From the IMG/VR virus record IMGVR_UViG_3300027896_000013: a stretch of 64,000 nt of DNA. One strand, 5' to 3'. Of this stretch, positions 1,424 through 7,828 are shown piece by piece. Numbering within the stretch: the stretch's first letter is position 1; every line of letters starts with the position of its first letter. Both the position numbers and the translations under genes were made by a program. The notes under the pieces were generated by a model that was not told where the DNA came from, did not search any database, and saw nothing but the letters and a program-made list of their open reading frames with translations. This DNA comes from a virus.

Positions 1424-1805
1424 TGGTGGAGTAGCCGGGAGTTGAACCCGGGTCTGAAGATCTTCTAATTACACTGAATTACAAGCTTTGTTGCGTTTTG
1501 CGCTACAACTACAGATTGTATACTGTAGAACTATTCCTCATGCTAACCGTGAGGATATCGGCTTTTCTCACTGCGACGATCGTTGAAGCCTTAGTGAGTT
1601 CAGACTTCGATCGGATTTCGGCTTTTAGGCCAAAACAGCGTCTGTGGCATATTTCGCCAACACTTCATCAGCGTTGTTGAAGATAGCTTCGACTTCATTC
1701 ATGATGTTGTCATTTATGATTTTGCACGATGTATTAACGAGGCCAACGTACGTCCTCGGCTTGCAGTCTAGGTTCGGTGATCTTCATCGATACCATTACT
1801 ACCCC
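1424..1805 (-). ncRNA. ssrA: tmRNA; predicted tag (A)DNIMNEVEAIFNNADEVLAKYATDAVLA at 1625-1711
   Basis: 5' GGGGTAG pairs with CTACTCCACCA (G3:U70), canonical T arm, ATAAAT before resume codon, tag ending VLA. Confidence 0.92.
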
Positions 1806-1896: not shown

Positions 1897-1914
1897 TGGT
1901 CGGAATGACAGGTA
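1897..1914 (-). pseudogene. 3' fragment of split tRNA-Pro
   Basis: TACCTGTCATTCCGACCA; CATTCCG pairs with CGGAATG at 2753-2759. Confidence 0.8.
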
Positions 1915-1930
1915 GAGAATAAATAATTGT

Positions 1931-2662
1931 ATGCAATTATTAATATCTACCGACCATCTGTTGACAAAATCTTATAAAGATCCGGTTCCTTGTAGATGTC
2001 TGCAATGTAAGCAAACATTTACAATACGCGCTACTCGCGCTAAAAGTATCTTAAAACAGCAAAAACTGGGTAAAGTTACTGATACAGCAGACTTCTGCTC
2101 ACAGAAATGTCATTACACGTACAAGCACACAGGAGTAACTGTTAATTGTGTCAATTGTGGTGCCCTGACATACGTTCAGCAGAAACTCTATATAAACTCT
2201 CGAAATAGGTTTTGCTCAAAAACCTGCCGAACCACATTTTGTAATGCTCACAAATCGTATGGTTATAGGCGATCAAAATTAGAAATCTATATTGAAAATC
2301 GTCTAAAGCAGGAATTTCCTACACTACCTATTGCGTTCAACGACACATCAGCAATTAACATTGAATTAGATATCTACTTACCTTCTTTGCGATTAGCATT
2401 TGAATTAAATGGTATCTTCCATTATGAACCGATCTTTAAAGAAGGTACGCTTGAGCGAACACAAGAACGAGACCAGCGTAAAATTTTAGAATGCAGTATT
2501 AAAGATATTGAGCTCTGCGTTATAAATACAACAGCTCAAAAATACTTTAAAGAAGCCACGGCAGAGCCATTTTACAGTATCATTAAAACTCTAATAACAA
2601 AAAACCTTAATAGACAGTACTGTTCTGAAATGGTCCACGCGACAGGTAACGCTCCTGCTTAA
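1931..2662 (+). CDS. Putative homing endonuclease, Zn-finger repeats + Vsr/EDxHD-like nuclease
   Basis: CxxC/FCSxxC repeats; ELDIYLP..LAFELNGIFHY; TAAATA upstream. Confidence 0.75.
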   Translation: MQLLISTDHLLTKSYKDPVPCRCLQCKQTFTIRATRAKSILKQQKLGKVTDTADFCSQKCHYTYKHTGVTVNCVNCGALTYVQQKLYINSRNRFCSKTCRTTFCNAHKSYGYRRSKLEIYIENRLKQEFPTLPIAFNDTSAINIELDIYLPSLRLAFELNGIFHYEPIFKEGTLERTQERDQRKILECSIKDIELCVINTTAQKYFKEATAEPFYSIIKTLITKNLNRQYCSEMVHATGNAPA

Positions 2663-2708
2663 TGACTAGTTCCCAAAACTAGTGGGTTCACTTTTTCCCT
2701 ACGCGTGG
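2631..2708 (-). tRNA. tRNA-Pro(UGG), intact copy inside the insertion
   Basis: CTAGT-TTTGGGA-ACTAG arm, CCACGCG/CGCGTGG acceptor, CCA. Confidence 0.85.
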
Positions 2709-2711
2709 TTC

Positions 2712-2759
2712 CTTGATCTTGCTCCCAAACCGAGTGCCTCACTTTTAGGCTACATTCCG
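2712..2759 (-). pseudogene. 5' fragment of split tRNA-Pro(UGG)
   Basis: CGGAATG, D arm, TTTGGGA loop with mismatched stem. Confidence 0.8.
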
Positions 2760-6584: not shown

Positions 6585-6660
6585 TGGTACCCCTGGCGAT
6601 GGTTGCAATCGCTGTCGCTCGGTTAAAAGCCGAATGCTTATCTCGTTAAGCTTCAAGGGC
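6585..6660 (-). tRNA. tRNA-Lys(UUU)
   Basis: CTTTTAA loop, CCA. Confidence 0.88.
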
Positions 6661-6674
6661 GTTAAATTGAAATT

Positions 6675-7715
6675 AGAGGTTGTATTCCGTAGCCGCGATA
6701 CTAAGTATACTTATGAAAGAACAAATCATCGAAGCAGTTCGACAATATTATAAAACATATAACAAATCTCCAGGAATTCCAAATAGTTGTAATCCTCTGA
6801 TGCCTGATGTACCATGTTATGCAACAATTAAAAAATACTTCAATTCGTGGAATGAAGTCTTAAACATTGCAGATATACCATTAAACATGAAGTCACCAAA
6901 ATCGAGAGTGCAAATTATATGTGCAAACTGTGGTAATACTAGAATGATACAACCTACAAGAATAAGTCAAACAAAACGCTCTTTTTGTAGTAAACATTGT
7001 GCAGGTACATATAATAGTAAACTACCAAAACATAAAACATTTCAATCAAAAGCAGAAAAGCAAATTAGAAAATATATTACAACTAACTATCCAAATCTTG
7101 AATTCATCACAAATAACAAATCACATATCGGTTACGAACTTGATATTTTTATACCGAGTCTCCAACTCGCTTTTGAAATAAATGGTATTCATCACTACAA
7201 ACCTATATATGGTACACCTTTATTTGAAAAAATAAAAATACGTGATAATTTACGAGTTGAAATGTGTGCTGCAAAAAATACAACACTCATAGTTTTAAAT
7301 ATTTCTAAACTCTCCCAATATACAGATAAGCATATGCAACCGTTTTATCAAATAGTAGATACTGCAATTAAAGATCACATGAAATAGTCTCGATTCGGTA
7401 ACCAATTTCTCGGTGTTAATCATTTATCTCAGTCTTTGCAAACTGGTCGATCGTTAAAATCGACTGCCCCAACCATTGCCTGGGTAACGTGTAGCACTAC
7501 CATCCATATTTGTACTTGCATCTACTATGTGGTCAATGAATCATAGGCTTATTCTATAACCCCTTTATTTCACCCTTCCTGCTGAACTTATCCGAGTTTT
7601 TCAAGGGCTCAGGAATGATTCTCCCACGAGCTGCTGTGATGGCGCGAACTTCCTCTAACAACCCAGACCTATTGTATTCATAGGTGACAGGGCTATCAGC
7701 GATAGGTCGAATGAG
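6675..7715 (-). ncRNA. rnpB: RNase P RNA-like gene interrupted by 695-bp nuclease insertion
   Basis: P3 hairpin then GAGGAAGTTCGCG; GGGTGAAA; GCAAG..CAAATA; AGATAAATGA; ACCGAATCG|CGGCTA rejoined across 6700-7394; P1/P2 pair weakly. Confidence 0.75.
6713..7387 (+). CDS. Putative homing endonuclease, Vsr/EDxHD-like nuclease
   Basis: N-terminal PCYATIKKYFNSWNE repeat, Zn finger, ELDIFIP..LAFEINGIHHY; TAAGTA upstream. Confidence 0.75.
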   Translation: MKEQIIEAVRQYYKTYNKSPGIPNSCNPLMPDVPCYATIKKYFNSWNEVLNIADIPLNMKSPKSRVQIICANCGNTRMIQPTRISQTKRSFCSKHCAGTYNSKLPKHKTFQSKAEKQIRKYITTNYPNLEFITNNKSHIGYELDIFIPSLQLAFEINGIHHYKPIYGTPLFEKIKIRDNLRVEMCAAKNTTLIVLNISKLSQYTDKHMQPFYQIVDTAIKDHMK

Positions 7716-7720
7716 TAAAT

Positions 7721-7828
7721 TGGCGCGAGGGGAGATGTATCAGATCTCATTTCAGCACTACCGAGTTTTAATCGGTTGATACGGCGACTTATCAGCTTGG
7801 GTTGAAAATCAACCACTGCTGCCCTCTC
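7721..7828 (-). ncRNA. CCA-ending acceptor/T minihelix carrying a nested three-hairpin domain
   Basis: GAGAGGG/CCCTCGC-GCCA, GAGAT/ATCTC T arm, inner CAGCA/TGCTG junction. Confidence 0.55.

Follow-up and report, generated by a model that had tools for sequence, protein, structure and literature searches.

A phage-type RNase P RNA gene very probably split within helix P4 by a predicted free-standing homing-endonuclease gene

The 64,000-nucleotide stretch of viral DNA analyzed here (IMG/VR record IMGVR_UViG_3300027896_000013; the whole stretch is hereafter called the window) carries on its minus strand what is very probably a phage-type RNase P RNA gene, belonging to a family found in phage tRNA clusters and split, in the piece at 6675-7715, in catalytic helix P4 (P, paired region). 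With the same high confidence, the break can be attributed to insertion, at the DNA level, of a free-standing homing-endonuclease gene. An earlier note on this DNA had described the interruption from the letters alone, and the follow-up reported below concerns its anatomy, its origin, and the functional state of the RNA.

The direct repeat CGAT was found in the sequence where the earlier note had placed it, at 6696-6699 and 7391-7394, with 691 bp between the copies (6700-7390) or 695 bp when one copy is included. On the minus strand, the 5′ part of the RNA gene terminates in ...ACCGAAUCG (7399-7391), and beyond the insert the strand restarts with ATCGCGGCTA (6699-6690; also written AUCGCGGCUA), an exact 10-mer that occurs once in the window, at the split site. 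The insert, which is absent at the homologous position in 18 related RNAs, has a G+C content of 29% compared with 45-50% in its flanks and is filled by an open reading frame (ORF; 6713-7387, plus strand) that leaves a non-coding remainder of only 13 + 3 nt. When the insert and one CGAT are removed in silico, so that ...CCGAAUCG would adjoin CGGCUAC in the RNA, P4 is restored with its bulged U, as had been proposed: the family register, AAG(U)UCGCG with CGCGGCU, gives −6.9 kcal/mol with the distal piece. Conserved region V (CR-V) and the P4 pairing are complete only once the insert has been removed (ACCGAA-UCGCGGCU).

Uninterrupted relatives were reached through a neighboring DUF2201_N protein, which is 69% identical to one encoded on the 142-kb contig of locus L118. 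The syntenic operon of L118 contains an uninterrupted RNA of ∼310 nt that matches the RNase P clan (31 bits, E = 3e-6), and patterns common to the window and L118 RNAs led to L121 and then to 16 further distinct IMG/VR contigs (among 80 loci) in which GAGGAAGUUCGCGAC is followed, 135-277 nt on, by AACAGAAUCGCGGCUA. The family, known from at least 18 other phage contigs, is represented here by these 18 relatives (L118, L121, L122, L138, L140, L141, L151, L153, L155, L158-L160, L168, L190, L192, L193, L199, and L200). All 18 run through the junction without interruption (...AACAGAATCGCGGCTA..., GAAUCGCGGCUAC, GAATCGCGGCTA) and so provide the empty alleles for which the earlier note had suggested a search. 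Because the 16-mer AACAGAAUCGCGGCUA served as a search string, the search itself accounts in part for its being invariant in all members. Helix P1 is present in 18 of 18 members, and P2 covaries, with six of six pairs formed in 13 of the 18 by ten different sequences. Several members lie in large tRNA arrays and give E values of 6e-11 to 6e-7 against RNase P models; across the relatives, Rfam RNase P scores range from 31 to 49 bits, all under the gathering threshold, at E = 6e-11 to 3e-6. The window RNA shares with these RNAs the CR-I and CR-V blocks and the tRNA-operon setting, flanked by tRNAs and transfer-messenger RNA (tmRNA). Whereas the 18 others are uninterrupted and all retain P1, at least 13 of them with P2 as well, the window copy is split and remodeled.

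Scans for the exact 22-mer of the rejoined junction returned nothing from viral and metagenome collections, other exact window patterns gave either no match or only unrelated tRNA matches, and nothing was found in scans of the GTDB genome collection. No paper on a phage-encoded RNase P RNA was found in the literature. Two RNAs outside the family were seen during these searches. A 16-kb viral contig (IMGVR_UViG_3300049639_000219, locus L083) carries at 1685-2045 a full-length, genuine type B RNase P RNA (RF00011, 223.8 bits) that lies within a tRNA gene array of 11 or more members and has a sequence unrelated to that of the window's family. A G+C-rich RNase P-like RNA at ∼1150-1420 of L084 has another P4 variant (GAGGAACUUCAGUC ... 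AAAAGGCUGGGUA); after it comes an end, ...CUCCACCA, that resembles a tRNA or tmRNA. Four JGI contigs (L084, L087, L098, and L101) share this sequence. The 16-mer AACAGAATCGCGGCTA also occurs, unrelated to RNase P, in a conserved gene that encodes a protein and recurs on many small viral contigs (∼55 loci in L123-L201), in the context ...GAGATCAACAGAGCGGCT-AACAGAATCGCGGCTA-GAACAAGACGTGG....

Identification of the RNA as RNase P draws on a hidden Markov model (HMM) built from the 18 uninterrupted homologues. This family HMM matched the window at 7731-7615 (E = 6e-10), and the 3′ piece at 6699-6683 was its second-best match in 128 kb (both strands). The in-silico rejoined sequence aligned end to end with 41.7 bits (E = 6e-13); with the 5′ piece alone, or with the contiguous genomic reading, the alignment stopped at position 111 and scored 31.9 bits. 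The earlier note had named a rejoined score no better than that of the 5′ part as grounds for refutation, and this outcome did not occur. CR-I, of the form GAGGAAAGUCC, is present as GAGGAAGUUCGCG at 7655-7643, immediately 3′ of P3, and CR-IV, a P15 loop with GGU, and P18 with a GNRA loop are all present. Compared with the family blocks, the window is identical at 14 of 15 positions of GAGGAAGUUCGCGAC and, after rejoining, at 14 of 16 positions of AACAGAAUCGCGGCUA.

The general Rfam model RF00011 matched the window at 7558-7380 with 24.9 bits (E = 2e-4), far under its gathering threshold of 97, and its alignment was good only over P15, P15.1, P18, and CR-IV, the 5′ half being forced onto the wrong bases. 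The Rfam alignment placed CR-I at GAUGCAAGUACA (7523-7512), an assignment that was rejected, since the true CR-I lies at 7655-7641. With bacterial RNase P RNA (clan CL00002; best model type B, RF00011), the window RNA shares CR-I, CR-IV, CR-V, P3, a P4 with bulged U, a hairpin-type P15 with GGU loop, and a P18 with GNRA loop. It differs from the bacterial RNAs in its low score, in a P4 of GUUCGCG/CGCGGCU, in a specificity domain that is not alignable, in the loss of P2 and a vestigial P1, and in being interrupted.

The ORF at 6713-7387 encodes 224 amino acids and is predicted to be a free-standing homing-endonuclease gene that runs in the antisense direction to the RNA operon, as the earlier note had recognized in calling it a nuclease. 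It matched PHROG 559/3339/9084 (best E = 8e-19), and its N-terminal part, a homing-endonuclease-associated repeat with a zinc ribbon, gave a weak match to PF18780; Pfam returned no match for the C-terminal nuclease domain. An AlphaFold2 model made with 21 homologues (mean predicted local distance difference test score (pLDDT) 86) was closest in Foldseek to 1cw0 and 1vsr (Escherichia coli Vsr) and to 3r3p (I-Bth0305I), with a probability of 1.0 but weak E values of 0.008-0.011. Residues Glu-142, Asp-144, Glu-155, Asn-157, Gly-158, and His-161 are invariant. These best matches point to a Vsr/I-Bth0305I-like enzyme. The C-terminal fold and the conserved acidic and His positions agree with Vsr-like homing endonucleases (I-Bth0305I, 3r3p; Dassa et al. 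2009, PMC2677866), but the I-Bth0305I gene resides in a group I intron, and the sequence similarity of the window ORF to 3r3p is only ∼11-12%. The Vsr-related family includes phage “fractured genes” and stand-alone inserts that break genes; proteins of the fractured genes are restored by a split intein, whereas no repair device is visible in the window (Dassa et al., PMC2677866). Homologues of the 224-residue protein are stand-alone genes in other phage contigs, and none of the genomic contexts inspected placed one in or beside an RNase P gene.

Immediately before the endonuclease ATG stands a perfect 10-bp palindrome, AAGTATACTT (6703-6712, plus strand), that contains TAAGTA, the putative late promoter of the earlier note. 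The ORF has no Shine-Dalgarno sequence, and no σ70-type site was found at the palindrome. TAA(A/G)TA motifs like this one had been noted, in the first reading of the window, before its other three nuclease ORFs. In the minimum free energy (MFE) fold of the precursor, J2/4 (J, joining region) and the first bases of the insert (GUUACCGAAUCGAGA, 7388-7402, minus strand) form 15 bp with 6892-6907 (minus strand) inside the antisense-ORF RNA, a pairing that may be due to chance.

Homing endonucleases typically recognize conserved, functionally constrained sequence, and CR-V with its P4 strand is conserved across RNase P RNAs. The 16-nt block AACAGAAUCGCGGCUA, inside which the cassette sits, was probably the homing site of the 224-residue endonuclease or of its ancestor, and the GAAUCGCGGCUA block is a probable new homing site for a candidate enzyme with a long recognition sequence. 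The gene would have entered through illegitimate repair of a staggered cut, leaving the CGAT repeat, and its insertion would have destroyed the cleavage site and so protected the carrier genome from the nuclease that it encodes. Transcription of the operon would continue through the antisense ORF, so that both ribozyme pieces would be made with nothing to rejoin them.

Other kinds of insertion were considered and rejected. A group I or group II intron was rejected, in agreement with the earlier note, which had seen no intron scaffold: neither type gave an Rfam match at E ≤ 10, the ORF is antisense, only 16 nt are non-coding, and the antisense RNA of the insert showed no excess structure on folding (z = −0.18). 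An rRNA-type intervening sequence (IVS) cut by RNase III was rejected for want of a long terminal stem; the MFE fold of the insert RNA contained neither a closing stem nor a bulge-helix-bulge motif. The 4-bp repeat fits a transposon target-site duplication as well as it fits staggered-cut repair, but a transposon was rejected because the sole ORF is the endonuclease and terminal inverted repeats are lacking; the best end-proximal inverted repeat, of 18 nt and 78% complementary, lies ∼40 nt inside the ends and is at chance level. Excision at the DNA level was likewise rejected, no recombinase being present and the repeat being only 4 bp long.

The proposed manner of spread is ordinary for T4-type phages, and what is unusual is the ribozyme target. 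The mobE, mobA, and seg43(25) genes are “transposition-like” insertions into critical parts of T4-type phage genes (PMC2988022). In these genes in pieces (mobE in nrdA of Aeromonas phage Aeh1, mobA between genes 60 and 39 of T4, and seg43(25) in gene 43; PMC2988022), as in the window, a gene is split into two separately encoded parts; they are protein genes whose two polypeptides reassemble, whereas the window has a catalytic RNA gene and an antisense ORF, and reassembly would need RNA-RNA pairing. T4 SegB (PMC2988022; Brok-Volchanskaya et al. 2008) resembles the window in being an endonuclease gene in a phage stable-RNA operon that homes without an intron. SegB is, by contrast, a GIY-YIG enzyme encoded between tRNA genes that cuts the tRNA gene region of phages lacking the endonuclease gene, whereas the Vsr-like gene of the window lies inside an RNA gene.

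The split RNA can be followed element by element. Its 5′ piece (7391-7724, minus strand) is homologous to the uninterrupted L118 and L121 RNAs and comprises a closing helix, P3, CR-I with the 5′ strand of P4, the specificity-domain region, P15/L15 (L, loop), P15.1, P18, CR-IV, and J2/4. At its 5′ end, GCCAAUUUACUC (7713-7724, minus strand) corresponds by homology to the 5′ strand of P1 in the relatives and in the window supplies one side, the 5′ one, of an 11-bp closing helix. This helix, 7724-7713/7411-7401, has an energy of −11.8 kcal/mol (shuffle p = 0.013), and the partner is the best in a 1-kb region. CCUAUC (7701-7706, minus strand) corresponds to the P2 5′ strand of the family and is partnerless in the window, where only three of six P2 pairs can form. 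The P3 hairpin (7655-7699, minus strand) has a lower stem of CUGAUAGCCC/GGGUUGUUAG and an upper stem of ACCUAU/AUAGGU; it was recovered in MFE folds and shows compensatory changes with respect to CUAGUA/UACUAG of L118. CR-I, GAGGAAGUUCGCGCC (7641-7655, minus strand), differs at one of its 15 positions from the family's invariant block and includes the P4 5′ strand AAG(U)UCGCG.

Farther along, the P15 hairpin with its GGU-bearing loop (7484-7467), P15.1 (7464-7446), and P18 with a GCAA loop (7445-7430) form the best-aligned part of the type B match (7430-7484, minus strand) and align to L121-type members. CR-IV (AGAUAAAUGAU) and a remodeled stretch occupy 7401-7429 (minus strand), as delineated by HMM and MAFFT alignments and the duplex test. 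Here ∼17 extra nt in J2/4 hold GAGAAAUUGGU (7411-7401), which is the closing helix 3′ strand, and the family P2 3′ strand is missing. J2/4 (UACCGAA) and UCG, with which the 3′ strand of P4 begins, are the last elements of the 5′ piece, at 7391-7400 (minus strand; family consensus AACAGAAUCG), J2/4 reading ACCGAA in the window and ACAGAA in the family.

The 3′ piece (6661-6699, minus strand) consists of the complete P4 3′ strand UCGCGGCU (6698-6691), A, CG, GAAU (6687-6684), and a 23-nt tail. GAAU amounts to 4 bp of P1 in family register, which is all of P1 that the 3′ piece retains; the tail lacks a partner for P1 (−2.5 kcal/mol, p = 0.37). GAAU and GAG-AAAUUGG, read together, form almost exactly the sequence that would complement the 5′ strand, but one part of it now lies in each piece. 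Pairing of GGGUUGU (7664-7658) with ACAACCU of the tail was considered as P1 and rejected, as the former strand belongs to P3, which covaries with L118. A tRNA gene (6588-6660, minus strand; Rfam tRNA, 42.6 bits) lies directly after the 3′ piece, and its homologue lies directly after the intact RNase P RNA of L118. The sequence TGGCGCGA is repeated at 7721-7728 and 7640-7647 (plus strand), so that the RNA strand carries UCGCGCCA both as the P4 5′ strand and as a copy just upstream of the 5′ closing strand. The latter copy could rival the P4 5′ strand in pairing with the 3′ strand, and it overlaps the “CCA-bearing minihelix” of the first reading (7721-7828).

That the phage ribozyme is disabled or badly weakened is about an even chance. 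It is the favored outcome because P2 and P1 have been lost, J2/4 is altered, and the 3′ piece would be held by only 7 + 4 bp. Loss of the ribozyme would be tolerated because the host's own RNase P could mature the phage tRNAs. Several features weigh on the other side. The ∼330-nt 5′ piece shows no general decay, with CR-I, L15, P15.1, P18, and CR-IV intact; its 5′ end has gained a significant 11-bp partner inside the same piece, and this closing helix looks like an adaptation to the absence of the distal P1 strand. The 3′ piece, in turn, has kept a perfect P4 strand and the in-register GAAU, and T4-type phage protein genes that were split by endonuclease genes in a like manner are functional (PMC2988022).

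These same features are the case for a working ribozyme, split or looped, which is possible but would have to be regarded as doubtful. Here the self-closed 5′ piece would be completed by the 3′ piece acting as a 15-nt staple, with UCGCGGCU pairing to the P4 5′ strand and GAAU to AUUC (7712-7709). Assembly might take place within a single transcript, across the 0.7-kb antisense loop, or else in trans once the A+U-rich insert RNA had been cut away, one conceivable route being RNase III cleavage of a duplex between the insert RNA and the endonuclease mRNA. Guerrier-Takada and Altman are said to have found in 1992 that M1 RNA is active when reconstituted from fragments, which speaks for such an arrangement; that work concerned larger, multiply paired pieces in vitro. 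The complementarity of the 3′ piece is moreover predicted by ancestry alone and is therefore not evidence of use, and the assembled RNA would be held by only 11 bp in two blocks, with P1 reduced to 4 bp and P2 lost. Bacterial 23S rRNA IVSs are a precedent for structural RNAs in non-covalently joined pieces; they are short and have a terminal stem that is cut by RNase III, and no such stem exists in the window. In its strictest form, the proposal would be a natural two-piece RNase P, in which a self-closed RNA of ∼330 nt operates with a separate staple RNA of ∼15-40 nt encoded 0.7 kb downstream, the antisense mRNA possibly guiding RNase III. We consider this form unlikely; if it were true, relocation of the P1 strand to 7411-7401 would reflect adaptation to the split.

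Less probable again is that the contiguous RNA is the ribozyme, with the inserted cassette supplying a substitute P4 3′ strand (UCGAGACU, 7393-7386) and the 3′ piece remaining as a scar. The RNA would then end within the antisense stop-codon region of the ORF, a fate that adds a fourth to the three envisaged in the earlier note (dead, assembled in two pieces, or repaired). On the RNA strand, the first bases of the insert, AGACUAUUUC (7381-7390, minus strand), contain AGACUA, which resembles the severed CGGCUA at four of six positions; extended to AGACUAU, the match to the family's CGGCUA(Y) is five of seven (p ∼0.01-0.04 by binomial estimate), CUA being the antisense of the ORF's TAG stop. The G-C and A-U pairs beside the bulged U are kept, and the Rfam model aligned the stretch as CR-V. 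The closing helix makes the 5′ piece self-contained, and a paralogous cassette in tRNA-Pro adjoins an intact tRNA-Pro copy. Against this, P4 in canonical register with the insert's bases reaches only −1.8 kcal/mol, compared with −6.9 kcal/mol for the true strand, with a G·A mismatch at its center for which nothing in the P4 5′ strand compensates. The HMM score is no higher with the contiguous extension, and the likeness may instead be a decayed 10-bp target duplication that supplied the ORF's TAG.

Removal of the insert from the RNA and ligation of the pieces, whether through a self-splicing intron or through a nuclease and a ligase, is very improbable. RNA ligases and kinase-phosphatases are frequent in T4-type phages, and the 4-nt repeat would permit an ambiguous junction, but the intron criteria already described (no group I or II match, 16 non-coding nt, an antisense ORF), the lack of excess structure, and the absence of a bulge-helix-bulge or terminal stem all argue against it. 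Finally, a chance RNase P likeness or a chimeric assembly, to which the low Rfam score might be thought to point, is scarcely credible in view of the family-HMM alignment of the rejoined sequence, the synteny with L118, the significant matches of the family to Rfam RNase P models, and the identical spacing of the region in an independent Logan contig.

Splitting of phage protein genes by homing endonucleases is known, as is their carriage by self-splicing introns within RNA genes. No description was found in the literature of such a gene lodged without an intron in a ribozyme's catalytic helix, or of one within an RNase P RNA gene. The case would imply that phage RNase P genes are frequent enough in co-infecting phages for a selfish nuclease dedicated to them to persist, and such a nuclease would be indirect support for the view that this apparently unpublished family of phage RNase P RNAs is widespread. 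The locus also offers a natural experiment on RNase P with a P4 helix assembled from two molecules. Were the gene simply dead, phage RNase P would appear to be dispensable once acquired.

The source of the window is predicted to be a distant T4-like phage, its portal protein being 33% identical to cyanomyovirus gp20. A blastn search with the split-gene region gave no DNA match among 50,697 phage records. Relatives sought through the portal protein were IMG/VR contigs that were too short or were without the RNA, and those sought through a 209-residue neighboring protein were unrelated phages only. The same phage is present in at least two other assemblies, and in the Logan assembly the gene spacing is identical to that of the window, which makes an assembly artifact unlikely.

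The minus-strand stable-RNA operon spans ∼8600 down to 1190 and includes tmRNA and several tRNAs, together with four endonuclease-like ORFs, three of which are antisense. The tmRNA at 1424-1805 (minus strand, 120 bits) has a predicted tag peptide that is unusually long, with 28 residues ending in VLA. A tRNA-Pro gene at 1897-2759 (minus strand) is split in its T arm, with the 5′ part beginning at ∼2759 (CGGAAUG...) and the 3′ part, ...CCUGUCAUUCCGACCA, at ∼1914-1897. The splitting cassette consists of an endonuclease paralogue (1931-2662, plus strand; 34% identical) and an intact tRNA-Pro(UGG) at 2631-2708, and UACCUGUC is common to this cassette tRNA-Pro and the split remnant. A 46-kb contig of the same phage (JGI Ga0031655_10000127) breaks off within the operon, close to the first of the nuclease cassettes, as would be expected if presence of the cassette varied in the population and broke the assembly.

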